Virus record (IMG/VR): IMGVR_UViG_3300045988_128491
Direction: 5' to 3' (one strand)
DNA length: 57,627 nt
From: a virus
The notes beneath the pieces were generated by a model. It was not told the DNA's origin and ran no database searches. It worked only from the letters and a program-made list of their open reading frames with translations. The number at the start of each line of letters is the position of its first letter. Position 1 is the first letter of the stretch. This document shows positions 1-57,627 of this stretch, one piece after another. Made by a program: the position numbers and the translations under genes.

Positions 1-87
1 CTCTACTCTCACCACCTGCTAAACAAATATTCACTCTACTCTCACCACCTGCTAAACAAATATTCACTCTACTCTCACCACCTGCTA
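1..87. repeat. 33-bp tandem direct repeat, about 2.6 copies (unit ctctactctcaccacctgctaaacaaatattca). The same array reappears at the window end.
   Basis: Perfect unit copies at 1-33 and 34-66, partial copy at 67-87. Identical units at 57538-57627. Confidence 0.9.
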
Positions 88-149
88 AACTTAAAGCAAC
101 GTCTAATTTTTTTGTTGTGACAAGCTACCCCTGCCAGCTAAACACACTA

Positions 150-665
150 TCATGGAACAAAGCTTTTCCCGCAGTGCGGACATATCACTTCATCTTCTGA
201 CGCAGCATCTGTGGTAATATCCTCATCTGCCTCGTCCTGTGACTGCTCCTTGGCAGGTGAATCCTCAAAGAAATCACCATACCCCTCAGAGGCAGGCATG
301 TCGAATTTAAACTCTGACATATCAAAGTCCATAGCCTGCAGCTCTGCAATTTCAGCATCCAGCTTTTCAAAGTCCCAGCCACTCAGTTCAGAGGTCTTAT
401 TATCGACCAGTCTAAAGGCCTTTACCTGTTCCGGTGTCAAATCTTCCTTTCTAATAACTGGTACTTTTTCGAGTCCCAGCTTCTCAGCAGCCAGCAGTCT
501 AGTATGACCATTAATAACCACATTGTCACTGTCCACAACAATTGGATTTGTGAAGCCAAATTCCTTAATACTTTTGGCTACTGTATCAACTGCCTGCTCA
601 TTGTTTCTAGGATTGTTAGCATAAGGAACCAAGTCCTTTACCGCCATAGCAATTACTTTTACCAT
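150..665 (-). CDS. ParB-like nuclease domain protein (ParB N-terminal domain)
   Basis: Motifs KDLVPYANNPRNN and INGHTRLLAAEKLGLEKVPV match the ParB N-terminal domain. RBS AAGGAGTG lies 7 nt upstream of the ATG at 665. C-terminus has CPHCG. Confidence 0.8.
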   Translation of the reverse strand: MVKVIAMAVKDLVPYANNPRNNEQAVDTVAKSIKEFGFTNPIVVDSDNVVINGHTRLLAAEKLGLEKVPVIRKEDLTPEQVKAFRLVDNKTSELSGWDFEKLDAEIAELQAMDFDMSEFKFDMPASEGYGDFFEDSPAKEQSQDEADEDITTDAASEDEVICPHCGKSFVP

Positions 666-849: not shown

Positions 850-1335
850 TTATAAAAAATATATTTTCTCCTCAGCAGCTTTCCCAAATAGCAATACTGC
901 GAGTCTTTTCTCTGCCTGTCTTGCCTGGATACGTACCCATCTTGATGTTATGTGCATTTCCTTAGAAATCTCAAGGGTAGACAGGTGTCTGAAATACAGC
1001 TTAGATATTAACACTTTATCCTCTGTGTCCAGCTTGCCAATACCCCAAAGCAGATTAGACAAAAATGATTTTACTAAGTTTGCTTTGTCCTGTAAATCTG
1101 CTTTTTCACTCTTTAACTTCATTCTCCTACTTGCGGCCCTCTCAACAGGGGTAAGCTCAGAACCTCCTCCCTGCTCCAGCCCATATGTCGTTGTCTTTAT
1201 GCTTTCATCAGCAAGTTCCAAATCTATCTCGTCACATCTGGCAAAAGCCTTTTCTACATAATCCATATACTTGTTATAGTTATCAAGGTAACTCCTGGTC
1301 AGCTTGACATAATCATTTGAATTTAAGACACACAT
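850..1335 (-). CDS. Sigma-70 region-4-like phage late transcriptional activator (ArpU/RinA-type position)
   Basis: C-terminal HTH LSTLEISKEMHITSRWVRIQARQAEKRL resembles sigma-70 region 4. AGGAGG lies 8 nt before the internal ATG at 1335. It sits at the end of the early region before the packaging genes. Confidence 0.55.
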   Translation of the reverse strand: MCVLNSNDYVKLTRSYLDNYNKYMDYVEKAFARCDEIDLELADESIKTTTYGLEQGGGSELTPVERAASRRMKLKSEKADLQDKANLVKSFLSNLLWGIGKLDTEDKVLISKLYFRHLSTLEISKEMHITSRWVRIQARQAEKRLAVLLFGKAAEEKIYFL

Positions 1336-1339
1336 AATA

Positions 1340-2701
1340 CTAGCCTCCTGCATACTCTTTTATTCTTGCTTTTACTGCTTCAAGCATTGAGTCCTGACTT
1401 TTGCCCTTACTCTCCAATGCCCTCATAACATCCTCGTCAATAGTACCTTCTGCAATTAAATGATGTATTACTACTGCATGTTCTTGTCCTGACCTGTGCA
1501 ACCTCTTATTTGCTTGCTGATAAAGCTCTAGGCTCCATGTCAGTGAGTACCAAATGGCAGTATATCCACCAAATTGCAGATTAAGTCCATGCCCTGCCGA
1601 AGCCGGGTGCACTAACAGCATTTTTATCTTGCCTGCATTCCAATCTTCTATATCTTCACTGGTTTTCAGTTCGCGTGCATATGGGAAATTTTTCTTCAGC
1701 TGAACGAGGTCGTGATTGAACCAGTAGAAAATTAAATAGCTTGTATGTTCGTTTAACTCGACCAATTCTTTCAAAGCCTGTATTTTTTCATCATGCAGGT
1801 GTACTATTTCTCTATTCTCATTGTAAATACAGCCATTTGCAAGCTGTAGTAATTTACCTGTCACTACACCAGCAGAACCTGCTGTTAGAACGTCGTTTGC
1901 AACTTCTAGTACATAATCCCTTTCCATCTTTTTATACATGGCTCTATCACGCTCTGACAGCTTCACAGGCACCTTATTGTATATCACCTCCGGTAATTTT
2001 AAATAATCTTTTGATTTCATGCTTACACAAATATCACTTATTCTGCGTAGTATCTCTTTATCGTCTCCATCATTAAGACACCACTCATATGTCACATAGC
2101 CGTTGCCCCTGCCAGGTGTGTAAAACCTTCTTCTGAAAGCCGTAATCGTTTTGCCAAGCCTTTCTCCCATATCCAGTAGATACATCTGACTCCACAAATC
2201 CATCAAGCCATTAGGTGATGGTGTGCCTGTAAGCTCGACAATTCTTTTTATCAAAGGCCTTACTTTTCTCAAGTCTTTAAACCTTTTAGATTTTGGGGAT
2301 TTAAAGGAAGATGATTCATCAATGACTACCATATCAAAATCCCAATTGCCTTTATACAGATTTACCAGCCAAGACACCATATCCCGGTTAATAACGTAAA
2401 TGTCTGCACCTGCTTTTAAGGCTTCCATACGCTGCTTGGCACTGCCCACAACCACGGAAATTTTTAAATCCTTGGTATGGTCCCAGTTTTTTACTTCAGC
2501 AGGCCATGTGCTTTCTGCTACTCTTTTTGGCGCAATTACCAGTACTTTGCTTACCTCAAAATAATCATACATCAGCTCCTTAATTGCTGTAAGAGTGACT
2601 ACTGTTTTGCCTAATCCCATATCAAGCATGAGAGCCAAAGCAGGTTTTTCAATTACCTGCTCCACTGCATATGCCTGATAAGGTCTAGGTATGAACCTCA
2701 T
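1340..2701 (-). CDS. SNF2-family DNA helicase
   Basis: Motif I LDMGLGKT, motif II VVIDESS and C-terminal helicase motifs. 453 aa. Confidence 0.8.
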   Translation of the reverse strand: MRFIPRPYQAYAVEQVIEKPALALMLDMGLGKTVVTLTAIKELMYDYFEVSKVLVIAPKRVAESTWPAEVKNWDHTKDLKISVVVGSAKQRMEALKAGADIYVINRDMVSWLVNLYKGNWDFDMVVIDESSSFKSPKSKRFKDLRKVRPLIKRIVELTGTPSPNGLMDLWSQMYLLDMGERLGKTITAFRRRFYTPGRGNGYVTYEWCLNDGDDKEILRRISDICVSMKSKDYLKLPEVIYNKVPVKLSERDRAMYKKMERDYVLEVANDVLTAGSAGVVTGKLLQLANGCIYNENREIVHLHDEKIQALKELVELNEHTSYLIFYWFNHDLVQLKKNFPYARELKTSEDIEDWNAGKIKMLLVHPASAGHGLNLQFGGYTAIWYSLTWSLELYQQANKRLHRSGQEHAVVIHHLIAEGTIDEDVMRALESKGKSQDSMLEAVKARIKEYAGG

Positions 2702-3563: not shown

Positions 3564-6041
3564 TTAACTCAACATTTCTTTCATGTTTTCCTCCTCTGTA
3601 AAAGTTGCATCTTTTTCAGTTATATAAGACCTTTGCTGCCCGTAGGCTTTACCAAAAGATACATGCCTTTGTCCATTTTTATACAGATGAAATTCTTCCA
3701 GCTGGTCAAGTGCGCCTCGAATCTCTTTTCTTTTGTAATTAGGAAAATCACTAGGTTTGTTGCCTAAAAGCTCACACCATACCTCAATAGGACTTATTCT
3801 TGTCCTTTCCATGCTGTCCTCTTCGTCTACCTCAAAAGCTGTACCTCTGAAATAATTCTGCCTTGTTGGTAAATCAAGCTGATACCAGTTTTTGGGAATC
3901 CTGACCTTGACAAACTCCTGAATCATGCCAAGCAGCGTATCTTCCTCAGTGAAAGCCTTCTGTACTTTTTTGGCCTCCTGCTCCATCTCCTCACCTATCC
4001 ACAGTGACTCTTTTTTCTTATATGCTTCCAAAGCCTCTGCCCAAATCTGGTCTACATTGCTTTCCATCTCTTTGCTCCACAAAACAGGATTTTTCTTGCG
4101 TACTGCTATCGGGAAAAAACGTCTGTTGCCTGTCTTATCCTGTAAAAATACAGCGTCATTAGTAGTACCAATGAAAATGCACTGTCTAGGAAATTCACTG
4201 AGTCTTCTGCCGTATGGAACTCTATAAATATCACTCTGCTTAGAGATGAATAACTTTGTAGCTTCTACTTCCGATTTCTTCAATGCAGCCAACTCTCCCA
4301 TCTCAATAATCCAACAGCCTCTGAGCTGTTCATAAGCATCTTTACCCTGCACACCAGTAAGCGAATCGCTAAACCATTTCTTCCCCAGTCTTTTCAGTAA
4401 ATAGCTTTTGCCAATACCCTGCGGTCCCTCCAGCACAACCATGTTGTCAAACTTAACTCCTGGCTCCTGCACTCTTGCAACTGCAGCTATTAAAGTCTTG
4501 CGGGTTACCATGCGGGTGTATGCAGTATCCTCTGCTCCTAAGTAATCTATAAATACGGTATCAAGTCTTTTAATACCGTCCCACTTCAAGCTCCTGAGAT
4601 ACTCACGCACCCTGTGAAACGCTTTACGCTTGGATACATTAACGATTTCATCTTCTATCTTGGCTCTATTATCAATGCCATAAACCGTCTCCATCATGTA
4701 TCTTAGCTCAGAGTCGTCGCTATCATTCCAGTGTGGGTCATTATCATCAAGGCATCGCCATCTAGGTTTTTCCAGCACCGCTATCCTGCCTGCAAACAAG
4801 TCATAGCCAAAACAGCCCTTTATGCTAGGGTCGTTCTCCAAGATAATTCTGATATTAAACCGTGTCCCTAGTATCTCCCCGGTCTTTTCGTTGAGTTTGA
4901 GTTTAGCAGTCCAGTTCATATCAGCTTCGCTATCATCGTCCGTGATAACCTCAAAATCTTCTCCGGCCTCAGCTCTTTTTTCTTTGGCAATGAGTATTTT
5001 TACGTTATCGTCTTTGCTAGCCAGCTTGCACATAGCTGTATAACTTGGAAGTTTGGTAGGACTGTCGACACTTTTCCCATCGTCAAGCTCAGAAAACTTT
5101 TGTAACCTCACAAGGTCGAAAGCATTGCAGAGCTGCATGGAGCATGGGTCGGTAGCATGATGTGAATACAGAAATTTATCTTCATACACCACTGCACCAC
5201 CTGTTGTACTGCCAGCCTTAAATGTGTATCTACCATCTTTGCAGGGGTCATACACATCTGAAAGATACTCATCGATAACCTCAGGCACTGAGTATGCTCT
5301 ACAGAAAAGCCCTACGATGCCATGTTTCTCTAATGGATCCTCCTGCTTTTTCATGGCTTTGCTGATGATGTGATCTACCCTGCTTGATACCGGCCAGCTT
5401 GCCTGGTCTGTCCAATCTTCATACCTTGCAAGTACAGTATCAGCTTTTAAAATACTGCAATCTTTGTATTTAAAGACCACAGGGCCATCAAGGGAGGCAC
5501 TAGGGTAGTACATAAGCCTGTGAGCTTCGTATGTAGTATCATCGAAACGGTCAATGCCAATGTCCTCAGCTAATTTCCTCGCAATAGCCTGATACTCGTC
5601 TACAGTAACCAGTCTGTCAACAGGGATAACCAGTCTCAGTCTTGGACTGTCTTCAGTGTGCTTATGTGTGCTATACACGCAGCAGGCATAATCTGTGAAC
5701 ATCTCCACGATGTCCCAAAAATCAGTACCGGCATAATCAGCATCAAGTGTGATAAGTTGCCTGCCCTCAACTGAGCTTGCACATCTCCTGCCGCCTGTAA
5801 GAACTCCACCAACAAAACCCCCGATGTCCTTTATATCGTCCTGCCTGTCCTTAGACATCTTTCTGTATTCAGACATGGTTTCACCTGTCCGCCTACAATC
5901 TGATAACCTAGACAGGAGCTTAGACCAGGACACGACTCCGTTTTTCCAATGTTTGCTTTTCCTGCTACTAGCTGTGGCTATACTTAAAATAGCATCATGA
6001 GCCACATGGATTTCCTGTAGTCTTTTATCAATAGCTGCCAT
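3564..6041 (-). CDS. DNA primase-polymerase fused to a VirE/D5-like P-loop NTPase
   Basis: Walker A GPQGIGKS in the C-terminal half, VirE-like region, N-terminal primase-polymerase-like region. About 825 aa. Typical replication-module neighbours. Confidence 0.7.
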   Translation of the reverse strand: MAAIDKRLQEIHVAHDAILSIATASSRKSKHWKNGVVSWSKLLSRLSDCRRTGETMSEYRKMSKDRQDDIKDIGGFVGGVLTGGRRCASSVEGRQLITLDADYAGTDFWDIVEMFTDYACCVYSTHKHTEDSPRLRLVIPVDRLVTVDEYQAIARKLAEDIGIDRFDDTTYEAHRLMYYPSASLDGPVVFKYKDCSILKADTVLARYEDWTDQASWPVSSRVDHIISKAMKKQEDPLEKHGIVGLFCRAYSVPEVIDEYLSDVYDPCKDGRYTFKAGSTTGGAVVYEDKFLYSHHATDPCSMQLCNAFDLVRLQKFSELDDGKSVDSPTKLPSYTAMCKLASKDDNVKILIAKEKRAEAGEDFEVITDDDSEADMNWTAKLKLNEKTGEILGTRFNIRIILENDPSIKGCFGYDLFAGRIAVLEKPRWRCLDDNDPHWNDSDDSELRYMMETVYGIDNRAKIEDEIVNVSKRKAFHRVREYLRSLKWDGIKRLDTVFIDYLGAEDTAYTRMVTRKTLIAAVARVQEPGVKFDNMVVLEGPQGIGKSYLLKRLGKKWFSDSLTGVQGKDAYEQLRGCWIIEMGELAALKKSEVEATKLFISKQSDIYRVPYGRRLSEFPRQCIFIGTTNDAVFLQDKTGNRRFFPIAVRKKNPVLWSKEMESNVDQIWAEALEAYKKKESLWIGEEMEQEAKKVQKAFTEEDTLLGMIQEFVKVRIPKNWYQLDLPTRQNYFRGTAFEVDEEDSMERTRISPIEVWCELLGNKPSDFPNYKRKEIRGALDQLEEFHLYKNGQRHVSFGKAYGQQRSYITEKDATFTEEENMKEMLS

Positions 6042-7712: not shown

Positions 7713-7946
7713 CTATTTGCTGTTCTTACCTTCCAGCTTGTCAATAAGAACCTGCACATGCATCCGCAGGGCCTTTGCTGAATCAATCAAATCATTTGTA
7801 GCTTTCATAGCCTTTATGCTGCAGGCAATGCCGATTTCCTTTTCATATTTAAGTACCTCGACTCTGTTCCTGTTAGCAACCATCAAATCTGCCCAGGCTT
7901 CGCTAATCATTCCCATGCACTGTCCCATAGTTCTCTGCTTAATCAT
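7713..7946 (-). CDS. hypothetical protein
   Basis: ORF with AAGAAGG RBS. 77 aa. Confidence 0.45.
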   Translation of the reverse strand: MIKQRTMGQCMGMISEAWADLMVANRNRVEVLKYEKEIGIACSIKAMKATNDLIDSAKALRMHVQVLIDKLEGKNSK

Positions 7947-7964
7947 TACATCGGCCTTCTTTCG

Positions 7965-8150
7965 TTAATCATTTCCTGCAATATCCCAATCACGAGGGTA
8001 GTTAATTACACAATTTTCCAGTGAAAAACCGTTATCCACATAGACGATAAAGGGACACACTTTGCAAGCATCGTTACCGTACCTATCCACCCTCGCCATA
8101 CAGTAGTTGTACAGCTCTTTCGCATTTTCTACTGCCTCTGCGTCAACCAT
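7965..8150 (-). CDS. hypothetical small Cys-containing protein
   Basis: 61-aa ORF with CKVCP. Confidence 0.4.
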   Translation of the reverse strand: MVDAEAVENAKELYNYCMARVDRYGNDACKVCPFIVYVDNGFSLENCVINYPRDWDIAGND

Positions 8151-8254
8151 TCCCTAACACCCCAGTCTTCCATGACAACCTTTGCCAGTGTTCTGCCAAT
8201 CTCAAACAGGAACCCTGTTCCTACTACAGCAAAAAGCATAAATACATAAGTCAT
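8129..8254 (-). CDS. small hydrophobic peptide (41 aa, one transmembrane segment)
   Basis: RBS AAGGAGGAAAATAA then ATG. ATGA overlap with the upstream stop. MTYVFMLFAVVGTGFLFEIGRTLAKVVMEDWGVREWLTQRQ. Confidence 0.4.
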   Translation of the reverse strand: MTYVFMLFAVVGTGFLFEIGRTLAKVVMEDWGVREWLTQRQ

Positions 8255-8712
8255 TTATTTTCCTCCTTAAGTTCTGCTACTCCCTCTGCTACCATCACAG
8301 CTTTACCAGCTATGCAGTTACCGCAGTCAACTTTTTGGCAGTCGATGTTTTTAAACAAACAGTCCTTACACTCATCGGCTTCACCTGCTGTATCTCTATA
8401 AGGGCAGGCTCCTGGACAAACTGAACAAATTTTAATTTCCTTGCCGCAGTGTTCACATACACCTAGCAGTCTTTCGTCACAATGCCCATGAGTTTCTTTG
8501 CCGCAGTGATAGCACTCCTCGTCGTACCAAGTCAGCTGATGGTAATCTCCCTCAAGCCATTCGGTAATAGCCTGCTCGCAGGTTTTGTTGTCGCAAGTGC
8601 CATCTTCATGGGCGTTGCAAGCAATACACCGATTTCCTGATACATTTATCAGGAATTTAGCTAATCGTTCATCAGGTAAGTTCTTTAACCAGTTTCTATT
8701 TGTCATAATCAT
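8251..8712 (-). CDS. cysteine-rich protein (multiple CxxC pairs, possible zinc ribbons)
   Basis: 153 aa from the internal ATG. At least 20 Cys in CxxC and CxC patterns. N-terminus MIMTNRNWLKNLPDERLAKFL is shared with two small upstream ORFs. Confidence 0.55.
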   Translation of the reverse strand: MIMTNRNWLKNLPDERLAKFLINVSGNRCIACNAHEDGTCDNKTCEQAITEWLEGDYHQLTWYDEECYHCGKETHGHCDERLLGVCEHCGKEIKICSVCPGACPYRDTAGEADECKDCLFKNIDCQKVDCGNCIAGKAVMVAEGVAELKEENK

Positions 8713-8819
8713 TTTATCCACCTAAAAGCCTCTCTAAGCCAAAGAAATATAATCAATCCCAGTAGTACGATTATCAGCCCAACTCCTGCTAGCGCTATGA
8801 ATATAAGTGCATTAAGCAT
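8709..8819 (-). CDS. small hydrophobic peptide (36 aa, one transmembrane segment)
   Basis: RBS GGAGGAAAATCA then ATG. Stop overlaps the next start (ATGA). MLNALIFIALAGVGLIIVLLGLIIFLWLREAFRWIK. Confidence 0.4.
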   Translation of the reverse strand: MLNALIFIALAGVGLIIVLLGLIIFLWLREAFRWIK

Positions 8820-8850
8820 TGATTTTCCTCCTCTACATCAACAAGAATAG

Positions 8851-9105
8851 TTACAGCATTTCTTTTCCGGTCTTTTGTCTAATCCTGGAAAACAAGTCGC
8901 ATATATCGTCTTTGTTGTTAAAAAGGCATTCCTGACAATGCCTACCTATAGACGTACAGTAATTTACCAAAATATCAACTGCTGTAAGTGCTGCTATGTC
9001 AGCTGAGTGAGCATCCCAATAGCCTTTGCGCACTACCTGCTTTGCGAAATAACTAAATGTGTTCTCTAGCTGTCTCATTAATATATCATCGTTCATTTTT
9101 CTCAT
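8851..9105 (-). CDS. hypothetical protein
   Basis: ORF. The internal ATG (MRKMNDD) is favoured over the TTG at 9153. Confidence 0.45.
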   Translation of the reverse strand: MRKMNDDILMRQLENTFSYFAKQVVRKGYWDAHSADIAALTAVDILVNYCTSIGRHCQECLFNNKDDICDLFSRIRQKTGKEML

Positions 9106-9250
9106 TCCCTTTCCAAACTCTATTCCATGCACATGCCTCTGGGAGTTGCACAACCTCTATGAATATATCTGCCAGCCTAGTATCATCTACCTGCTCTAGG
9201 ACTCCATTAATTTTCTTAATTGCGTACTCTCTGTTAGTCATTATCTTCAT
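9086..9250 (-). CDS. small protein (54 aa) with an MKIMTNREY N-terminus
   Basis: RBS CAGGAG then ATG. ATGA-type overlaps on both sides. N-terminus paralogous to the 8251-8712 and 9234-9401 ORFs. Confidence 0.35.
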   Translation of the reverse strand: MKIMTNREYAIKKINGVLEQVDDTRLADIFIEVVQLPEACAWNRVWKGNEKNER

Positions 9251-9401
9251 GCTCCTGTCTTAGCCATTGAGTTATTCCCTTAGAACATATATTTTCACTA
9301 CAAAATCGAACATTTCTATACACGCACACAGCGCAAAAATCTAGTATTTCTGCTAATTCCTCATCTGACAGGTTTTCGAGCCATTCTCTATTAGTCATCA
9401 T
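9234..9401 (-). CDS. small Cys-containing protein (55 aa) with an MMTNREWLENLSDEELAEIL N-terminus
   Basis: RBS GGGAGTGTGAGGA then ATG. CAVC and CSENIC motifs. Confidence 0.35.
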   Translation of the reverse strand: MMTNREWLENLSDEELAEILDFCAVCVYRNVRFCSENICSKGITQWLRQEHEDND

Positions 9402-23415: not shown

Positions 23416-23493
23416 AAGTATATAGCAAAAGTGTTATTACATTATTATATATACAAAAGTGTGATATACCTATTATAAGGGAGAGTGGATAAT

Positions 23494-33937: not shown

Positions 33938-35077
33938 CTACCATTTTATATGAATACAACCACTGTTACCGTTACCGCCATTACTACCACCATCATTAGT
34001 GCCACCACCACCACCACCACCACCAGCGGCACCATAAGTGGTACTAAGGTATTTAGAGAAGGTATTGATAACTATAGGGCCAGTTACGGACCCACCAATA
34101 CCACCAGCGCCGCCATAGGCAGGATGATTACTACCACTGCCAGAAAAACTTACTATGCCGCCACTACCGCCGCCACCACCTCTTGCTAAAATAACATTAT
34201 CTATACCAGAGGCACCGCCGCCGCCACCACCGCCACCACCATAAACGCCTTTCCAAGAGCCAATTAAACCGTGACTGCCTATACTACCGCTAGAAAGATT
34301 AGAGGCACCGCCACTACCACCGCCACCATTCGACCCACCTGCGCCGCCGCCACCGCCGCCACCACCTATATGGATTGAATGGGATGATAGAGGGGTTACT
34401 ATTAACGGTACAAAGTCTAGTGCTTCGCCATGCATACCAGCTGCTCCCGCATTAGAACCACCGCCGCCTCCACCACCTCCGCCTCCAACGGCAGTGACTA
34501 CAAGAGTGGACACTCCTTCAGGCACCACAAAAGTATCGTTAGCAGTAAACAGCTTTTCACCATGAGTTGCGTTCCCTCCAGTAACACCTGAGCTTAGTAT
34601 GCCATTAGTGATTGTTAGTCCGTCACCTATTTTTACACCGCCTAGCGTGGTGGCACTAGCTACTGGCAAAGAGTAATTAGACAGTTCATCTAATTTCTTT
34701 TTCTGTGCAGCGGTCATCAGACCGGATGCGCTATCTGTAACTGTTCCGTAGGTTGTATCAGTGAATTTTGCATTTACCGGTACATCAGAATTAACTGTGT
34801 GTCCATTAGCCTTTAGAGCATTATCCGCAGTGGTAGCCCTGCTAACTAAACCTTTATTACCGGACAAGTTAAACAACTCTACCCATGTTGCGCCATCAGC
34901 ATTAAGCTGGTACAGCTTTTGTTCGTCGGTTCGGAAGCACAGCATTCCCGGCTGTAAATTTATAGTAGGAAACGCTGGCCCGCTATTACAGCTGATTGCT
35001 GTTTTATCATTGTTGAGCAGGAGTTCCCTTGATTCTCTCAATGTTTTGTTCTCATCTATTTCAGTATATTTCTGCAC
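33938..35077 (-). CDS. glycine-rich tail fiber protein
   Basis: Poly-Gly runs (GGGGGGGGGS, three times) after an N-terminal tail-fiber-like region. 379 aa. Confidence 0.55.
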   Translation of the reverse strand: MQKYTEIDENKTLRESRELLLNNDKTAISCNSGPAFPTINLQPGMLCFRTDEQKLYQLNADGATWVELFNLSGNKGLVSRATTADNALKANGHTVNSDVPVNAKFTDTTYGTVTDSASGLMTAAQKKKLDELSNYSLPVASATTLGGVKIGDGLTITNGILSSGVTGGNATHGEKLFTANDTFVVPEGVSTLVVTAVGGGGGGGGGGSNAGAAGMHGEALDFVPLIVTPLSSHSIHIGGGGGGGGAGGSNGGGGSGGASNLSSGSIGSHGLIGSWKGVYGGGGGGGGGASGIDNVILARGGGGGSGGIVSFSGSGSNHPAYGGAGGIGGSVTGPIVINTFSKYLSTTYGAAGGGGGGGGTNDGGSNGGNGNSGCIHIKW

Positions 35078-51115: not shown

Positions 51116-52508
51116 TGTTAATTCTTTCCTTTAGCTGCTTTTGGGATAACTCCGACATTAAACGATCTGTGGCATTATTGCGGATTTCATTAATGACCGC
51201 ATCGTACTCATCATCAGGAATACCAGTAAGATAAGCCTCAACGGCCTTTATCCTGGCCTGCTTGTTAAACTCAACACCAACATTCAATTCCAGTGCTCTA
51301 GCAACATTGTCTAGCTCTGATGCAATGTCAACAATGCCAAAATCACGGGGATAGATAACTTTGTAATCAATTTCCTCCCCAAAATATGCAGACCAGTATT
51401 TCATGATTTTTTTCTCTGCTACCTCCAGATTTTCTGCCATATCGGCAAGAACCTGATTGGTGTTTTCAAAGTCCCACTGCTTAGCTACACCGCTTGCTTT
51501 AGTTTCGACTGCGGTCACAGATGATAGACTTGCCTGCCTGTACACATCATCAATCAACCTTTGAATCTCGGACTGCAGCAGCTGAGCCTGTGATGCCTCC
51601 GGCGCAATAAAGAATGGTCGCGCTCCAACCTCGCCATCAAACAGCAGCATATCGTTAGTGCCAACCTTAATGCTGGATAGTGCTTTATCAATAGGCACTC
51701 CCTCAGTTACCGGATAGCACAGAATAGAAAAGGCCTGATTCCTCAACAACTCTCGTAACTCGCTTGACAGATTGTAGATGGTCAGATTAGTTCTGGCTAT
51801 GGATATCATAGGTGACAGTGGTAGCAAATCACCATTTTCATGCTCAGTACCAAATACTGGCACCACCGGAATAAAACCTAGATTATTCTTTCCTTTTTCT
51901 ACAACACCATCATGCCGTGTTACCTGCCAATCGGTAGGAGTCCATTTCCATGTATCAGTATCCATCATCACCTTATAGCCAGCAAAAGACTTACTGTAAG
52001 TAGAACCGCACTTAAACTCAATCTCTCTGATGACACCGCTGCTATCACATTTGTAATTGGTGACATTTTCAGGCTTGATGATATAGAGATATGGGTACTG
52101 CCGTTTTTCAATAGCTGACTTCTGTCCCGCTTCAATGGTTCTGTCATTATCGACAAAAACGAAAACAGAACCATATAACTTAGCCATTCGGCAGCACTGC
52201 TTCATAAAGCTATTCATTGTATTACCAAAGCGGTCAACATCTTGTTGAAAGTCACCTATGATGCTGTTACCTCCACCCCAGTCCCTTGCAATTTCTTTGC
52301 GGAAAATCGGATTGGTCAGTGAATCGACAACGGGCTTTACGAAGTTTGAATAGTAACTTAGCCTTCTTCTTCGCAACAGCTTATCTGTGTCCTCCCTGGG
52401 GTGCGGTATAATATAAGTACCTTCAAGGTAGCCGCCGCCCCCTGTGTAGGAGTCGTACAGAAAATCATAATCGTATATAGATACAGTTTCCAAAGTATCA
52501 CCTACCAC
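51096..52508 (-). CDS. portal protein
   Basis: 470 aa, directly downstream of the large terminase. Confidence 0.75.
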   Translation of the reverse strand: MVGDTLETVSIYDYDFLYDSYTGGGGYLEGTYIIPHPREDTDKLLRRRRLSYYSNFVKPVVDSLTNPIFRKEIARDWGGGNSIIGDFQQDVDRFGNTMNSFMKQCCRMAKLYGSVFVFVDNDRTIEAGQKSAIEKRQYPYLYIIKPENVTNYKCDSSGVIREIEFKCGSTYSKSFAGYKVMMDTDTWKWTPTDWQVTRHDGVVEKGKNNLGFIPVVPVFGTEHENGDLLPLSPMISIARTNLTIYNLSSELRELLRNQAFSILCYPVTEGVPIDKALSSIKVGTNDMLLFDGEVGARPFFIAPEASQAQLLQSEIQRLIDDVYRQASLSSVTAVETKASGVAKQWDFENTNQVLADMAENLEVAEKKIMKYWSAYFGEEIDYKVIYPRDFGIVDIASELDNVARALELNVGVEFNKQARIKAVEAYLTGIPDDEYDAVINEIRNNATDRLMSELSQKQLKERINNGQIEE

Positions 52509-53764
52509 AAATTTACATTTCTCGAAGTAACATCCTTTTCATTTCTCATAATTCCAGAACAGCCATACCTTACAGCGTCTATAGCATGGTTATTAACGTC
52601 AGGATAGCAGGAAATGAAGCTCCCGTCTTTATTCCTTGCATACTCATACTTAACAAACTCTTTGTAGGTGTTAGGGCAACGCTCTTTGTCAATATAGATG
52701 TTCCGTCTTTCCTGCAACCACTTTATACCGTATGCAACACTATCAGGACCTTTTTTAGCCCCTATCATGTTGACTCCATAATTTTTGAAAGACTTTATTG
52801 TCCTTGGCTCAGCAGAATCACCTATTACCAGCCCTCTGCCTGCCTTGCTCTTTATCTCCTCTGCAGCTGGCCTGGTATCATAGCTGTATTTGTAAATTTC
52901 ATCAAAGATGTATAGGTCCTCGTGCTTTTTATCATAGTGCATAGCCGCAAAAGCCAAAGGATCTACAGCAAAACCGAAATCACAACCGTAGTGCAGGCGG
53001 TCAAAAAGCTGTATTTTGCTGTCTGACATTCTCATGTCATGCACATTATCAAATACATCACCTCCAGAACCAATAACCTCACCCATGTACTCATGTCGCC
53101 ACAGCTCTTCTCTTTTCCTTTTCAGCTTTTCAGCTTCAGCAATGAATTGTGGGCCTAGCCAATCTTTAGGTATCTGAGTGTAATTAGTGTGGAGTACAAG
53201 TCTATCTGAGTCGTTAAACAGCACTTCCTCATTTACCCAGTTGTCGCGGCTCTTTGGTGGATTGTAAGAATAAAAACACCAAGAAGTATCGCCGCCACGC
53301 AGTAATGACTGGTTGAGGTTTCGTATTTCTTCCATGCTGTCAAACTGGTCCAACTCCTCATACCATGTAACACCTACATAGCCAAAAGCTGGCTTTATGG
53401 ACTTGACTTTCTGTTTATCATCAATACCACGGAATATTATTTTCTGCCCTGTATCTTTGTATGTAAGCTCTAAAGGACTGGTTTTAGCTCTCCATAGGTG
53501 CATTACTCCAAGTTCCTCAATAGCCCACAAAATCTGATTATAAACAGAATCGCGCAGTGTTCGACCTACTTTACGCATAATAACAGCGTGTACGTCCCTG
53601 TTCTTCGGTTGCATTAGCAATAAGGGTATCACTTCGCTGATGGTAGTGGACTTTGCACTGCCTCGACCTCCTGGGAGCCAGTAATGCGTGTGACCATGCT
53701 CCATGACATCAAAAAACCAATCGTCATAGCACGGTGCTATCTTATCTGCAATATTTACTTCCAT
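52502..53764 (-). CDS. terL: terminase large subunit
   Basis: Walker A WLPGGRGSAKS. C-terminal nuclease-like acidic motifs. RBS AAGGAG lies before the internal ATG at 53764. Confidence 0.85.
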   Translation of the reverse strand: MEVNIADKIAPCYDDWFFDVMEHGHTHYWLPGGRGSAKSTTISEVIPLLLMQPKNRDVHAVIMRKVGRTLRDSVYNQILWAIEELGVMHLWRAKTSPLELTYKDTGQKIIFRGIDDKQKVKSIKPAFGYVGVTWYEELDQFDSMEEIRNLNQSLLRGGDTSWCFYSYNPPKSRDNWVNEEVLFNDSDRLVLHTNYTQIPKDWLGPQFIAEAEKLKRKREELWRHEYMGEVIGSGGDVFDNVHDMRMSDSKIQLFDRLHYGCDFGFAVDPLAFAAMHYDKKHEDLYIFDEIYKYSYDTRPAAEEIKSKAGRGLVIGDSAEPRTIKSFKNYGVNMIGAKKGPDSVAYGIKWLQERRNIYIDKERCPNTYKEFVKYEYARNKDGSFISCYPDVNNHAIDAVRYGCSGIMRNEKDVTSRNVNLW

Positions 53765-53814
53765 GCTACAACTCCTTGCAATAAAAAGGCACTCACATTT
53801 CTGCAAGTGCTTTA

Positions 53815-54477
53815 TCAGGCTTTCCTGTTAAATACAAAACTAATAGGGCTGTCTTTTGCAGTCTCCTTTTTCTTCTCTGCCTGCTTTTCTGCTAGCTTAT
53901 TCCTGGACTCAATAGCCCGCACTACTTTTTCCTGTACTTTGGTCAGTGCTTCCTCTATGGCAATAATCTTGTCTACTAGAGCCTGCCTGCACTTTGTTTG
54001 CTCCTTTAAAGATGGATTGTCAGGGCTGAATCCAGCTTCTATAGCGATGTGAGATATTTCCTCAGTAATCATGTCCCTGTCTGCTCTGACTGCCTCTAAA
54101 AGCTCAAACATCCTCTTCTGCCTCACAAGCATTAGACCAATTTCAAAATCCAAGAGCTTTATAGGGTCCCTGTCATAGTTAAGCAGCATATGAGTTTCTT
54201 CAGGTGTCAGTGTGGAAATATCAATTTTAGAGTAGGCTCCTGTTTTCAGGCCGTTCTGTGAACCTTTTGGGGCTCCATGCCCTTTTGCGTTCTGATTGCC
54301 TTTTACTCCACCGCCTAGCCGTTTAGACTTCTGCACCCAGCCATTATCCCGCCAGCGTGCAATAGTGCCAGCTGTTACGCCAACCTCTCTTGCCAGCCTG
54401 CGGATTGGAATCTTACCCTTGCTGTCCTTCCAAATCTGGCAGGCTTTATTAAAGGCTTCTACTTTATAGTCTGCCAA
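53815..54477 (-). CDS. terS: terminase small subunit
   Basis: N-terminal HTH RLAREVGVTAGTIARWR. 220 aa. TTG start with AAGGCGGTG RBS. Confidence 0.6.
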   Translation of the reverse strand: MADYKVEAFNKACQIWKDSKGKIPIRRLAREVGVTAGTIARWRDNGWVQKSKRLGGGVKGNQNAKGHGAPKGSQNGLKTGAYSKIDISTLTPEETHMLLNYDRDPIKLLDFEIGLMLVRQKRMFELLEAVRADRDMITEEISHIAIEAGFSPDNPSLKEQTKCRQALVDKIIAIEEALTKVQEKVVRAIESRNKLAEKQAEKKKETAKDSPISFVFNRKA

Positions 54478-54489
54478 ATCTACACCGCC

Positions 54490-55059
54490 TTAATCCTTAA
54501 CCAGTTTTAAAAATTCCTGTGTGTACAAAAAGCTATCAAACAACCCTTTCTTGCTTATTGTGACAGTCTTTGCACCTGGCTTTTTAATCCCTCTTGCAGT
54601 CATGCAGGAGTGACTGGCTTCTATCCTGACAATGACATCATCGCCGACAATCTTCTGCAGGATTTCCAAAATATCAGTCCCAATTCTTTCTTGTAACTGT
54701 AACCTCTTACAGCACATGTCAACAATTCGTGCTATCTTTGAAAGCCCAATAACTTTACCTTTGCTAGGGTAATATCCGACACTAATTTTCATATCATAGA
54801 TTAAGGCAAGGTGGTGCTCACAGTAGCTAAATGCTTCAATATCCTTTATTACAACCATATCACTGGACTGACAGTCAAAAGTCTTACCATACATCTCTGC
54901 CAGCTGGTCATTTGTGTACTGCATACCTTCCCATACTTCACCTAGCATTTTCGCTACTCTTTTTGGTGTTTCCTCCATGCCTGGTCTCTTATCAGTGTCT
55001 ACACCAAAGCAGGATAGGAGCTGCTTTACTGCAAGCTCTGCTTTTTCTACATCAGCCAT
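54490..55059 (-). CDS. folE: GTP cyclohydrolase I
   Basis: 189 aa. CEHH zinc/catalytic motif. SHSCM. Confidence 0.85.
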   Translation of the reverse strand: MADVEKAELAVKQLLSCFGVDTDKRPGMEETPKRVAKMLGEVWEGMQYTNDQLAEMYGKTFDCQSSDMVVIKDIEAFSYCEHHLALIYDMKISVGYYPSKGKVIGLSKIARIVDMCCKRLQLQERIGTDILEILQKIVGDDVIVRIEASHSCMTARGIKKPGAKTVTISKKGLFDSFLYTQEFLKLVKD

Positions 55060-55062
55060 TCC

Positions 55063-55761
55063 CTAAACACCTCTTTTCTCAGGATCCCAAATATACTTGT
55101 GAAGCTGCAGCTGCAACCGCCAATCAAATTTCTCGTACTTAGTCCGTTTCATAAAGTCCACAATTTCAGCAGGTGTAATCTTGCCAAACACTGGTGATAA
55201 ATACACATTGCCTTTCAACCTGCTCAGGAAGAAATGTGTATAAACATCAGCAGCCTCCTCTAAATCCTCTACACTGCTTACCACAAACTTTACTACATCT
55301 TTAGCCCGTACCTGCTCAAAATTAGGCAGGTACATACTTCCATTCATGCCGGAAGATTTACACTTGTAATCCAAAGTGAAGAATACATTGCTAAATCTCA
55401 GATAATCATTTATTGGCATGGAGCCGTTGCTCTCAATATTTACCTCATGGTACAAGTGCTGTAAATTATCTAATGCTGTCAGCAGACCTGGTAGTGTCTT
55501 ATAATGCATAAGAGGTTCACCGCCAGTAATCGTTACATTCTTACATCTGATATTATCTAAAATATCCTGCACCTGTGTAACTTCGCAATCTTTAGACATA
55601 TCCTGTGCATAGGCTGTGTCACAGTAGGAGCAGTGCAAATTACAGCCATTCAGACGGATAAAGGTAGCCAGCTGTCCTGCTCTTTTACCCTCACCCTCTA
55701 TGCTGTCAAAAATCTCATTAACTAAGAATCCCTGGTCAGGTATTGTCATAAATGGCAACAT
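55063..55761 (-). CDS. queE: 7-carboxy-7-deazaguanine synthase (radical SAM)
   Basis: CNLHCSYCDT radical-SAM cluster motif. About 232 aa. Confidence 0.85.
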   Translation of the reverse strand: MLPFMTIPDQGFLVNEIFDSIEGEGKRAGQLATFIRLNGCNLHCSYCDTAYAQDMSKDCEVTQVQDILDNIRCKNVTITGGEPLMHYKTLPGLLTALDNLQHLYHEVNIESNGSMPINDYLRFSNVFFTLDYKCKSSGMNGSMYLPNFEQVRAKDVVKFVVSSVEDLEEAADVYTHFFLSRLKGNVYLSPVFGKITPAEIVDFMKRTKYEKFDWRLQLQLHKYIWDPEKRGV

Positions 55762-56068
55762 TGCCCTCACTCTCCTGTACTTTTACTCTCACACAATTCG
55801 GTACTTTGCCGCAAATCCACTTTGCTATATTTTCTGCTGTAGGATTGCGCAATAGCACATCATTCAAATACTGATGATCCAGCTCCTGTCCAATAATATT
55901 TTTGATGTGCTTAAAGTCAACCACCATGCCCTGCTCATTAAGCTCTTTAGCTTGGCAGGTTATTTCAATTATCCAGTTATGACCATGCAGTCTAGTGCAG
56001 GGACTCTGATAATTAAGTGCCAGCTTATGAGCTGCCGATATTTCTAATCTTTTTGTTACTGTGTACAT
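55736..56068 (-). CDS. queD: 6-carboxy-5,6,7,8-tetrahydropterin synthase
   Basis: 110 aa. ISAAHKL...HGHNW motifs. GGAGG RBS. Confidence 0.85.
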   Translation of the reverse strand: MYTVTKRLEISAAHKLALNYQSPCTRLHGHNWIIEITCQAKELNEQGMVVDFKHIKNIIGQELDHQYLNDVLLRNPTAENIAKWICGKVPNCVRVKVQESEGNVAIYDNT

Positions 56069-56070
56069 GC

Positions 56071-56769
56071 TTAAACCTCCAATGCAGGGTCCTTTACTCC
56101 ATTAGCTTCAAATGCCTTGGCTCTGTCAATGCAGGTGCCACAAGTACCACAAGGTCTATCTCCACCCTCATAACAGCTCCATGTTAAGCGGTATGGTGCT
56201 TTAAGCTGTATCCCCAGCTTAACCACTTCTGCTTTATTGAGATAAATCAGCGGAGCCTCTAACCGACAGGTAAATCCACTGCCTGCATAAATAGCTCTAT
56301 TCATGCTCTTAAAAAACTCAGGTGTGCAATCGGGATAAGCCCTGCCTGCTGCATCATCAGCGTGTGCACCATAATAAATAACCTCAGCTCGCACAGAAAC
56401 AGCTATAGAGGTTGCGTAGGCCAGCATAAGACCGTTTCTAAATGGTACATAGGTGTCTACCGTACCACAATCCCCCATCTTAGCCAGCTGTTCAGCATAG
56501 GACTCATGCTTGATTTCTTTATGCGAGCTAGCCAATAGCGGGCAGTCACTTAATCTAAAAGCCTCTGACAAATCGGCTTCCATGTGATTTACCCTGTAAT
56601 AGTTTGCTACTGCTTTTGCACTCTTGATTTCTTTTTCGTGCTTCTGTCCGTAATGTACAGACAGGGCCAGCACATTATTATTGCCATATATAGCAACGGC
56701 TTTTGCTAGGCAGGTAGTAGAGTCAATACCACCGGATAGCAAAACTATTGCCTTATACTCTGACTTCAT
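56071..56769 (-). CDS. queC: 7-cyano-7-deazaguanine (preQ0) synthase
   Basis: LLSGGIDSTT PP-loop. C-terminal CGTCGTCIDR zinc motif. GGAGG lies 8 nt before the internal ATG. Confidence 0.85.
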   Translation of the reverse strand: MKSEYKAIVLLSGGIDSTTCLAKAVAIYGNNNVLALSVHYGQKHEKEIKSAKAVANYYRVNHMEADLSEAFRLSDCPLLASSHKEIKHESYAEQLAKMGDCGTVDTYVPFRNGLMLAYATSIAVSVRAEVIYYGAHADDAAGRAYPDCTPEFFKSMNRAIYAGSGFTCRLEAPLIYLNKAEVVKLGIQLKAPYRLTWSCYEGGDRPCGTCGTCIDRAKAFEANGVKDPALEV

Positions 56770-56861
56770 TTGAAAAACCTCCACTTTCCTTGACATACTC
56801 CCACCTAAGAGGTGGAAATCTTCTGGCTAAAAAGATAAAAATATACATATTTATTTCTACC

Positions 56862-57476
56862 TTACAAACAACCTACAGCCCATTTCTGAAATTTAACCCA
56901 CTCTTTGAAATTGTGTGTGGCAACTGCTACAGAATCTCTCATCCTGGTGCCCTCGGGCTTGCGAATCTGCACCATCTTTTTACCATTAAATTTATACAAG
57001 TATCCAAACCTGCACCCCGCCAGCCATGCAGTACTGTCAACGCTGTTAAAATGACACATAGGCAGCCATTTCATGCTGGTGAACCCCAGCCCGTGAATCT
57101 TAGCTTTTCTTCTGTGTGCCTCTGCTATTAACTTAGGTAGCACATGGTAATGCTTTGGCTCTATTTCCTTGCTCACAATACCACCTAGGGCAACATAATC
57201 ATGCTCCTCACACATTTTTTCAAATTCATATTTCCCTCTGGACCTATGCCATACTGGGATGCACTTCTTTCCAGTTTCTCTATTTATGTACTCTCTAAGC
57301 TCCAGCACTTTCTTATAACCCAAAATGCAATCAACATCCATTTCAAAAAAGTGCTTTATATTATTCTCATTGACGTAAGCAATATATTTGTCTACATAGG
57401 CCGTGAAATCTGCTTTTGTGTACTGCTTAGTACCCTGCATAAAAGAAAAAGCACCTGAGTCCAGCATGTAGAATGG
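56862..57476 (-). CDS. dpdA: tRNA-guanine-transglycosylase-like DNA transglycosylase (DpdA family), start uncertain
   Basis: MLDSGAFSF (compare the TGT DSGG[FY]Q catalytic motif) and FEMDVDCIL (compare TGT VDMFDC). Sits directly upstream of queC, queD, queE and folE. The track ORF extends artefactually into the 33-bp repeats. Confidence 0.5.
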   Translation of the reverse strand, partial: PFYMLDSGAFSFMQGTKQYTKADFTAYVDKYIAYVNENNIKHFFEMDVDCILGYKKVLELREYINRETGKKCIPVWHRSRGKYEFEKMCEEHDYVALGGIVSKEIEPKHYHVLPKLIAEAHRRKAKIHGLGFTSMKWLPMCHFNSVDSTAWLAGCRFGYLYKFNGKKMVQIRKPEGTRMRDSVAVATHNFKEWVKFQKWAVGCL

Positions 57477-57537
57477 ATAGTATTTTAGTAACTTAGTGGA
57501 GTCAGGTGTTACCTGCACAAAGCTCTCCAAGATAAAA

Positions 57538-57627
57538 GGTGCTAAACAAATATTCACTCTACTCTCACCACCTGCTAAACAAATATTCACTCTACTCTCA
57601 CCACCTGCTAAACAAATATTCACTCTA
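57538..57627. repeat. 33-bp tandem direct repeat, about 2.7 copies, identical to the units at 1-87
   Basis: gctaaacaaatattca, then two full units, then ctcta. Confidence 0.9.

Follow-up and report, generated by a model that had tools for sequence, protein, structure and literature searches.

What a small ParB-like protein does beside a DNA-modifying enzyme, and what a perfect 33-bp tandem repeat is doing between the genes of the two, are the questions raised by the viral contig IMGVR_UViG_3300045988_128491. The contig is 57,627 nucleotides (nt) long and was analysed over its whole length, which is called the window here; related viral and bacterial loci are labelled L001, L002 and so on, and protein clusters P0121 and so on. 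The enzyme is DpdA, a predicted transglycosylase that would place the 7-deazaguanine base preQ0 in DNA. We favour the reading that the ParB-like protein of 171 amino acids (aa) works with the adjacent DpdA as an accessory or activator protein on double-stranded phage DNA, and from the analysis presented below we would put its probability at about 0.65. The repeat is taken up after the protein, and its explanation lies in the start of dpdA.

The presence of a ParB-domain gene of 171 aa at 150-665, as given by the initial annotation, was borne out by the listing of open reading frames (ORFs), by Pfam ParB_N (PF02195; E 1.1e-7, 32.2 bits against a gathering cut-off of 26.3) and by phrog_620, described as 'ParB-like partition protein' (E 2e-56). 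PF02195 was also present in all 120 best homologues of the protein. A structure model was built with AlphaFold2 (AF2) from 53 homologues. In it, residues 1-111 form a ParB/CTPase-fold nucleotide-binding domain with two helices, an acidic linker at about 116-158 is disordered, and residues 159-171 close the chain as a CPHCG hairpin; the predicted local distance difference test (pLDDT) score was 86-96 in the first of these parts and fell below 50 at 126-156. The best PDB match in Foldseek was the B. subtilis ParB-CDP structure 6SDK (E 1.5e-7, root-mean-square deviation 2.8 Å over 125 columns), and the folds of Noc, M. xanthus ParB-CTPgS, C. crescentus ParB, KorB, PadC and sulfiredoxin (Srx) were matched as well.

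The residues N18 P19 R20, S32, G37, G53 H54 T55 R56 and D88 N89 were invariant in the 53 homologues. When the family profile was aligned with M. xanthus ParB and Noc, the motifs NPR, S, G, GHTR and DN fell on QPR of Box I, the S and G that contact cytosine, GERR of Box II and the N of Box III, and the phosphate- and base-binding residues are therefore taken to be kept. The R of Box I, the R of Box II, the N of Box III and the base-contacting S and G are conserved, while N and H take the places of Q and E, the residues of hydrolysis. Binding of a nucleoside triphosphate (NTP) is predicted from these motifs. No helix-turn-helix was seen in the AF2 model or the Foldseek matches; where a canonical partition ParB has a parS-binding helix-turn-helix and a C-terminal dimerisation domain, the window protein has the two helices, the linker and the 13-residue hairpin. 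No parA was seen among the annotated minus-strand neighbours, and no search of the window was directed at parA. In NCBIfam, TIGR00180 scored 36.7 bits, under its cut-off of 58.45, and the ParB and Noc matches were likewise sub-threshold. The sole match in PADLOC was with the N-terminus of the MTase_II methyltransferase model (E 8e-32). By its sequence, the protein is a member of the modification-associated phage ParB family, in the ParB/Noc-like branch with GHTR.

A ParB-like protein followed by DpdA is a nearly obligatory pair in this DpdA clade. The pairing survey was seeded with DpdA only, and ParB was then sought by a local hidden Markov model. IMG/VR gave 78 DpdA loci, 43-57% identical to the window DpdA, and a ParB-like ORF of 150-260 aa was found directly upstream on the same strand in 64 of them, or in 64 of the 65 informative loci. 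In 13 of the 14 loci where it was not found, the sequence upstream is shorter than 510 nt, and the fourteenth, L113, has queF and then the contig end, which is the order of phage Funsized. GTDB (one genome per species) was scanned with an alignment of five DpdA sequences, an alignment of 11 being too divergent, and the ParB-like gene lay directly upstream in 44 of 47 informative loci, which belonged to prophages or phage contigs of many phyla, including Clostridia, Faecalibacterium, Veillonella, Phocaeicola/Prevotella, Synergistota and Saccharibacteria. The pair was kept whether queCDE/folE, terminase or other genes came next.

The pair was also found in named phages. In Rosebush, gp1 and gp2 (ParB-like and DpdA) have a 4-nt overlap, with QueC, QueD, QueE, FolE and terminase next in order; Rosebush DNA has dPreQ0 at 28% of G, and the paper reporting it does not mention gp1 (PMC6884629). 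Funsized carries the pair with gene 1 as the ParB-like member, and in Fusobacterium phage phiFN37 the ParB-like gene and dpdA overlap by 4 nt. The phiFN37 locus (L086) has three ParB-like genes within 8 kb, at 889-1395, 4354-4839 and 7757-8245, one of them directly after a 3'-phosphoadenosine-5'-phosphosulfate (PAPS) reductase gene, a pairing like that of IbrA/IbrB or DndC, and another overlapping dpdA, which points to a separate ParB for each modification enzyme.

The same ParB family was found with several other enzymes. Downstream of 69 ParB homologues there were 23 Mom-like genes (PF25680), four C5-methylases, two TET-associated glycosyltransferases (TAGT) and three DpdA genes; the remaining downstream genes were mostly terminases, located after ParB-domain proteins of about 400 aa that have the size and family (phrog_498) of ParB-methyltransferase fusions, with a presumed methylase domain. 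All motifs, including the C-terminal CPxCG, are common to DpdA-linked and Mom-linked ParBs, which are up to 62% identical, and the nearest neighbour had the same partner for 57 of 64 DpdA-linked and 20 of 23 Mom-linked proteins. Among cultured phages, the closest relatives of residues 1-122 were the N-termini of prophage DNA methyltransferases (55-63% identity). The window protein has the layout of ParB176, the phage protein described below, without a DNA-binding domain, and its family shows the location beside DpdA, Mom-like, C5-methyltransferase or TAGT genes that goes with a modification-associated ParB.

The initial annotation had regarded ParB-like proteins near phage terminase genes as having no assigned function, a view that is now out of date. 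ParB-terminase modification loci have been described computationally, after Iyer 2013, in PMC4738411; phage fusions with a ParB-CTPase fold were surveyed by Kaljevic et al. in 2025, with binding of CTP, ATP or GTP shown (PMC12704722); and an activator was shown experimentally in 2026. In that work (O'Toole et al., PNAS 2026; PMC13229309) a subclass of phage thymine dioxygenases, 5mYOX176 among them, was found to need a cognate ParB-like protein on double-stranded DNA, and this protein, ParB176, consists of a nucleotide-binding domain, a helix-helix element, a disordered linker and a C-terminal domain, with no DNA-binding domain.

Judged from its sequence and gene context, the window protein very probably works as a partner of DpdA. 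The operon would make preQ0 and insert it into phage DNA after replication; this chemistry is deduced for the window because Rosebush and CAjan have the same gene set and contain dPreQ0. The ParB-like protein would let DpdA act efficiently on double-stranded phage DNA, possibly as a nucleotide-gated dimeric clamp that closes and holds DpdA on the DNA, or alternatively by allosteric activation of DpdA. Its role would be the counterpart of that of DpdB for bacterial DpdA and of ParB176 for 5mYOX176.

Several points weigh against this proposal. We infer physical or functional cooperation of ParB and DpdA from gene context and from precedents. Expressed alone in E. coli, DpdA of phage 9g placed dPreQ0 at 0.3% of the G of plasmid DNA, and the DpdA2 enzymes of nt-1 and VH7D modify E. 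coli plasmid DNA without a phage ParB, the three enzymes together inserting preQ0 or preQ1. Since the 9g, nt-1 and VH7D enzymes act alone, a partner is not a general requirement of phage DpdAs (PMC6884629, PMC10516641). The premise of the initial annotation, that DpdA needs a ParB-like partner, therefore holds for bacterial DpdA (PMC10164549) and fails for these three phage enzymes; attempts to reconstitute phiSM DpdA1, DpdA3 and DpdA4 did not succeed (PMC6884629, PMC10516641). A ParB beside DpdA is missing from Streptococcus phage Dp-1, Bacillus phage BCD7 and three GTDB loci of this DpdA clade. Most members of the ParB family are not beside DpdA and many stand directly before terminase genes, so that part of the ParB-DpdA adjacency could come from an insertion hot spot used in common. 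Activation in the 5mYOX system survived mutations in the NTP site, which makes a clamp or NTP mechanism uncertain even there (PMC13229309). Finally, the assembly of the window does not fix the 5' end of dpdA or the true N-terminus of its product.

The DpdA of BCD7 (L087, 4797-7070) has 757 aa, with a C-terminal extension of about 500 aa and no adjacent ParB-like gene. A Pfam scan of this protein for a fused ParB domain gave no match; the extension might replace the ParB function.

The role of the bacterial partner DpdB was also considered for the window protein. Bacterial DpdA requires DpdB, a ParB-like ATPase, for preQ0 insertion (PMC10164549), and in the CRB2 paper a homologue of dpdB was the guess for the ORF that precedes a mycobacteriophage DpdA (PMC6392294). 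In PADLOC, no DpdB match was obtained for the 171-aa protein at E<=10, DpdE being the only Dpd model matched (by the SNF2 helicase of the window) and the DpdB models being without a positive control; there was no Dpd match either for three phage DpdAs or for gp1 of Rosebush and of Funsized, and for that reason PADLOC supplies no positive control. No DndB/DpdB-type match was obtained in NCBIfam, and when the family profile was run against the PDB, ParB, Noc, Spo0J and Srx were found and no SspE or DndB chain at E<=10. The protein has the motif GHTR, not DGQQR, and its AF2 model has no α-helical C-domain like that of DpdB. On these grounds it is not a DpdB orthologue by sequence, a distinction drawn from the description of DpdB and from PADLOC, NCBIfam and the PDB and not from a direct profile comparison. 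Of the profile check suggested in the initial annotation, the part on the ParB and Srx families gave matches, and no DpdB, DndB or SspE match was obtained in these three resources. The idea that the protein could play the role of DpdB survives in part: it is a probable DpdA partner, in a pair that is conserved, often coupled and present in Rosebush, but its homology to DpdB is not supported.

Nearly all genes of the window are on the minus strand, and the features of the locus are as follows.

850-1353, minus strand: small activator, sigma-70 region-4-like or RinA-like (weak Sigma70_r4; phrog_36, phrog_248; weak NCBIfam sigma-70 extracytoplasmic function (ECF) and RinA matches).
150..665, minus strand: ParB-like gene, 171 aa (ORF listing, PF02195, phrog_620).
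91..149, minus strand: spacer 3' of the ParB stop codon (sequence).
1..90, minus strand: ParB-proximal part of the array, 2.7 copies of the 33-nt unit (Tandem Repeats Finder (TRF), translation).
57540..57627, minus strand: dpdA-proximal part of the array, 2.7 copies of the 33-nt unit (TRF, translation).
56862..57623, minus strand: dpdA, predicted DNA 7-deazaguanine transglycosylase of the tRNA-guanine transglycosylase (TGT) superfamily (phrog_887, hhalign, AF2).
54490..56796, minus strand: preQ0 synthesis cassette of queC, queD, queE and folE (Pfam).
56071-56796, minus strand: queC (Pfam QueC, E 1.5e-56).
55736-56068, minus strand: queD (Pfam PTPS, 8e-30).
55063-55770, minus strand: queE (Pfam Radical_SAM/Fer4_12).
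54490-55059, minus strand: folE (Pfam GTP_cyclohydroI, 4.5e-54).
52502..54477, minus strand: terS and terL, directly downstream of the modification cassette.
53815-54477, minus strand: terS, terminase small subunit (phrog_1889, E 1.5e-36).
52502-53806, minus strand: terL, terminase large subunit (phrog_3717, phrog_5653, phrog_2).

The operon order is sigma-like activator, ParB-like gene, dpdA, queC, queD, queE, folE, terS and terL, and the cassette followed by terS and terL is a 'ParB-terminase locus' arrangement. The sigma-like activator lies directly upstream of the ParB-like gene, a position kept in relatives (orthologues of 161-162 aa in L225-L232), and further upstream there are genes for an SNF2 helicase, a VRR-NUC nuclease and VirE/primase. 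The step from ParB to dpdA crosses the contig ends in the window, where prefix and suffix are exactly identical over 38 nt and over 71 nt, and it was read straight through in L001, L081, L171, L225 and L229-L232. L001 is IMG/VR contig 3300045988_111808, whose ParB protein is 100% identical to that of the window; the other read-through contigs are 103759 (L081/L002), ENA OIYS01000137.1 (L171) and several Logan/ENA contigs (L225, L229-L232). Read-through contigs of near-identical phages uphold the previously proposed order of ParB, repeats and dpdA, and queC, queD, queE and folE come next in the window as described earlier. When GenBank phages were searched at the DNA level with the two ends of the window, no close relative appeared, with matches of 65-73% in single genes at most.

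The window dpdA was assigned, at the level of the family and not of a subfamily (DpdA1-4), by phrog_887 (E 1e-43) and by hhalign against Rosebush gp2 (probability 94%). Its AF2 model (pLDDT 80, predicted template modelling score 0.79) had bacterial and human tRNA-guanine transglycosylases as best PDB folds (E 2.5e-5), and DSG, VWH, H, DS and W were invariant among 11 aligned DpdA sequences. The protein had no match in Pfam, NCBIfam or PADLOC, and the DpdA profile gave no match to PDB sequences at E<=10. The ORF is open to the contig end, with 253 aa from the first GTG visible there and a core from about PFILESF; these 253 aa make up the complete gene provided that the 71-nt overlap of the ends is redundant.

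The module 3' of the constant ParB-DpdA pair was found to be swapped among otherwise syntenic phages. In L225 and L230-L232 (about 73% ParB identity), a 273-aa methyltransferase dependent on S-adenosylmethionine (PF13489, PF08241, PF13649) lies between dpdA and queD (L225 7454-8275; L230 2302-3123; L231/L232 2350-3171), in the place of queC, with QueD, QueE and FolE kept. Because a cassette without QueC would stop at 7-carboxy-7-deazaguanine (CDG), these phages may make a different 7-deazaguanine derivative, possibly a methylated one. In L226-L228 (77% ParB identity; e.g. L226 7289-8447), queF and queC follow dpdA, which predicts dPreQ1 and not dPreQ0.

The repeat was then placed relative to dpdA. 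A perfect 33-bp tandem repeat was found at 1-90 (2.7 copies, 100% identical, TRF score 180), and the matching repeat at 57540-57627 (2.7 copies, 100% identical, TRF score 176). The joined array would have 3.2 copies with the 71-nt overlap, 4.2 with the 38-nt overlap or 5.4 with a 5-nt overlap, which is essentially end to end; as prefix and suffix are identical over both 38 and 71 nt, the window alone cannot give the true copy number. The perfect repeat described earlier is thus real, but its count of at least five copies presumes no terminal redundancy and is not established. On the coding strand one unit reads GTG AAT ATT TGT TTA GCA GGT GGT GAG AGT AGA, which the frame of dpdA translates as V N I C L A G G E S R. 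NICLAG within the unit is the conserved DpdA N-terminus: homologues start with M(K/N)I(F/C/Y)LAG and have PFILESF about 20 residues later. Each unit holds a Shine-Dalgarno sequence (AGGTGGTGA), the GTG and the dpdA codons NICLAGGESR, and within the array GGTGGTGA acts as the Shine-Dalgarno of the next GTG. In the single-copy locus L001 the dpdA ORF (8601..9350) begins exactly at the unit GTG, with the good Shine-Dalgarno AGGTGGTGA before it, and the same GTG was called as the DpdA start in L225 and P0126-P0128 (MNICLAGQDP...) by the database's own, independent gene caller. In the AF2 model of the window DpdA the repeat-encoded residues 1-30 are of low confidence and the barrel runs from FILES onward.

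The number of units varied among relatives. L001, L225, L229 and L231 have one full unit; L081 and L171 have two; L230 has two that arose independently, both with the GGAGGTGA variant of that lineage; and the window has at least three GTG-bearing units. As 33 nt are 11 codons, the duplications stay in frame. The last unit of the window array joins ...PFILESF directly, by an in-frame deletion of 54 nt (18 codons) relative to L001, L081 and L171, in which the missing nucleotides lie between two GTTTAGCA motifs. In L226-L228 there is no array and no spacer, and dpdA (MKIFLSAL...) begins 3 nt past the ParB stop; the junctions of the more distant pairs L004, L005, L018, L084 and L085 showed no arrays and one weak 19-nt pair (L084). 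An exact search of IMG/VR with the 33-mer matched contig 103759 only. The array, which adjoins a variable A tract and the 54-nt indel and is polymorphic among near-identical genomes, would have arisen by slippage between GTTTAGCAGG repeats already there in the single-copy state. We consider it very likely that it is a polymorphic in-frame duplication of the dpdA ribosome-binding site, GTG start and first codons. It does not lie immediately upstream of dpdA, as had been thought, but overlaps its start. Any effect of the repeat on DpdA expression is conjectural.

The sequence GTTTAGCAGG was also tried as a dispersed promoter-like or regulatory motif and rejected, as it was essentially confined to the junction at <=1 mismatch in a genome-wide search. 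In the distant DpdA locus L004 (3385-3600) there are two in-frame copies of the N-terminal motif, MKIFLAGGESRHW... and, 31 codons on, MKLFLAGVTPW...; the lineage of the window is therefore not alone in having a duplicated dpdA 5' end.

The spacer between ParB and the array (91-149) begins with an ATG that overlaps the ParB stop (ATGA) and continues with a degenerate dpdA 5' unit (GTGTGTTTAGCTGGCAGGGGTAGC) and an A7 homopolymer. Among eight relatives the A tract between the ParB stop and dpdA was 7, 8 or 9 nt long; the sites of variation are 91-149 (minus strand) in the window, 8514-8600 in L001 and around 1500 in L229, L231 and L232. With A8, the frame started at ATGA continues into dpdA and gives a DpdA of 278 aa, as in P0121 (85 member sequences) and P0124 (13 contigs), which begin with MIVCLAG or MILCLAG and were called with a 4-nt ParB overlap; the ATGA overlap of ParB and dpdA is found in L229, L231 and L232. 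With the A7 of the window, the ATG at the ParB stop opens an ORF of 16 codons only. Since A7 or A9 closes the ATGA frame, the internal GTG must be used in such genomes. A promoter and terminator scan of the L001 junction found no terminator and no strong promoter between ParB and dpdA. The length of the A tract may switch translational coupling on and off by slippage, or may be neutral variation.

Other explanations of the ParB-like protein were weighed against partnership with DpdA. It might serve packaging, or act as a nuclease in nicking, pac/cos processing or DNA marking, the dpdA-que cassette having been inserted between it and terS. Many of the 69 ParB-homologue loci continue directly into terminase subunits, the 'ParB-terminase large subunit locus' is known from the literature (PMC4738411), and terS and terL come after the cassette in the window. 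The pair nevertheless persists without a nearby terminase, in phiFN37 and in many DpdA loci that have no que or ter genes within 6 kb; ParB overlaps dpdA by ATGA; where the enzyme is swapped for Mom, a C5-methyltransferase or TAGT, ParB stays with the enzyme and not with the terminase; and the ParB clades follow the partner enzyme. We therefore regard a packaging or nuclease role as improbable. That the protein is a true DpdB orthologue, from the DndB/SspE-type branch of the ParB superfamily, can hardly be right: it has the same position beside a DpdA-family enzyme, and the same idea was put forward for ORF1 of mycobacteriophage CRB2 (PMC6392294), but no DpdB, DndB or SspE match was found by sequence or profile in PADLOC, NCBIfam and the PDB, the nearest structures are canonical ParB and Noc, and 171 aa with GHTR stand against about 400 aa with an α-helical C-domain and DGQQR (PMC10164549).

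For the array, the initial annotation had proposed a binding site of the ParB-like protein, a pac-like signal or a target-recognition signal. A cis-acting site of this kind, whether parS-like, iteron-like or pac, is suggested by perfect direct repeats beside a ParB-family gene, by the core GTTTAGC(A/T)GG, of which single-copy genomes too have four copies in a stretch of about 150 nt (spacings 55, 33 and 54 nt), and by the near confinement of the motif, at <=1 mismatch, to the junction region of the window. By sequence, these four copies are C-L-A-G codons from duplicated DpdA N-termini that have since decayed, and an iteron or parS array would be non-coding and conserved in position and number. 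The units found here are in the dpdA frame with the dpdA Shine-Dalgarno and start codon, their number goes from one to at least three among genomes with 99-100% identical ParB, relatives at 77% ParB identity have no spacer and more distant pairs have no tandem array, the ParB-like protein has no helix-turn-helix, and the array is 3 kb upstream of terS, not in or beside it. As the units are coding, variable in number and missing from distant relatives, the iteron, parS or pac reading is unsupported and a cis-acting site is very unlikely. An artefact of short-read assembly at a short duplication, affecting the array itself or its size and the 54-nt deletion, is also unlikely, if less remote: the array sits exactly at both contig ends with an exact 71-nt overlap, and the deletion junction of the window was not found in one Joint Genome Institute (JGI) metagenome scan. 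Two-copy arrays were, however, read through in three independent assemblies (L081, L171, L230), each window end alone has 2.7 perfect copies, above any read-through relative, and the deletion and the duplications all preserve the dpdA frame. Duplication of the dpdA start is hence retained as the explanation of the array. The case is a warning: tandem units that are perfect and stand next to a gene for a ParB resemble parS or iterons, and here they are a polymorphic gene-start duplication.

Repeats were seen at two other places in the window. The 379-aa minus-strand ORF at 33938-35077 holds CCA/CCG-rich repeats of 3, 9, 12 and 15 nt at 33974-34487, with G-rich triplets on the coding strand, probably a collagen-like or Gly-rich segment of a tail fibre. 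An imperfect 28-bp tandem repeat at 23419-23477 (2.1 copies, 84% matches), between divergent gene blocks at about 22.4-23.5 kb, could be an origin or operator.

In Rosebush, and in over 100 of the loci collected here, dpdA has a ParB-like gene before it. If the product of that gene is an activator, this would explain why 25-32% of G is modified in 9g, Rosebush and CAjan against 0.3% with 9g DpdA alone, and it would be a possible reason why some DpdA subfamilies were not reconstituted in E. coli, on the assumption that an adjacent ParB is present in those phages. It would also give one mechanistic handle on a module common to chemically unrelated phage hypermodification systems, and could be of use in engineering restriction-resistant DNA. 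A wider, tentative proposal, which we think somewhat doubtful, joins both parts of the locus: the phrog_620-type ParB would be a general, exchangeable activator or loader for DpdA, Mom-like enzymes, C5-methylases, TAGT and possibly 5mYOX; a whole clade of phage DpdAs would be 'ParB-dependent'; and the hypervariable 5' end of dpdA (A7/A8/A9, the 33-nt variable-number tandem repeat and the 54-nt indel) would be a contingency switch between a ParB-coupled ATGA start and an independent start. If true, it could explain phage DpdAs that are inactive or weak when expressed alone in E. coli.

Among known systems, Rosebush gp1-gp7 has the same order as the window, namely ParB-like, DpdA, QueC, QueD, QueE, FolE and terminase (PMC6884629). 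The proteins themselves are distant, with 25% identity for ParB (pairwise E 2e-4) and about 27% for DpdA; Rosebush gp1 has 263 aa and its DpdA 385 aa, and the host phylum differs from that of the window. The ParB-terminase loci and the ParB-N6/N4 methyltransferase fusions (PMC4738411, PMC12704722) have the same ParB domain family at a site just upstream of terminase genes, whereas the window encodes ParB as a polypeptide of its own, beside a transglycosylase that comes with a cassette for making its substrate. In the bacterial DpdA/DpdB system (PMC10164549), as in the window, a ParB-superfamily protein is encoded beside a preQ0-inserting transglycosylase of the DpdA family. DpdB is about double the length (about 400 aa) and belongs to the DndB/SspE branch, with DGQQR and an α-helical C-domain, whereas the window protein is canonical ParB/Noc-like with GHTR; the self-mark made by bacterial DpdA is found on about 1 in 10^3 nucleotides, compared with up to tens of percent of G in phages. 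The 5mYOX176/ParB176 pair (PMC13229309) is like the window in having a small phage ParB, without a DNA-binding domain, beside a post-replicative base-modifying enzyme, in the Box I N that replaces the catalytic Q and in ParB clades that track the cognate enzyme, the likeness of ParB176 to the window protein being drawn from its published description and not from sequence. The partner enzymes differ, a TGT-fold transglycosylase in the window and an iron/2-oxoglutarate-dependent (Fe/2OG) dioxygenase in 5mYOX176, and so do the C-terminal elements, a 13-residue CPHCG hairpin in the window and what its authors named a dimerisation domain in ParB176. The ParB-DpdA pair described here is an extension of two known kinds of system, DpdA/DpdB and the ParB-dependent 5mYOX.

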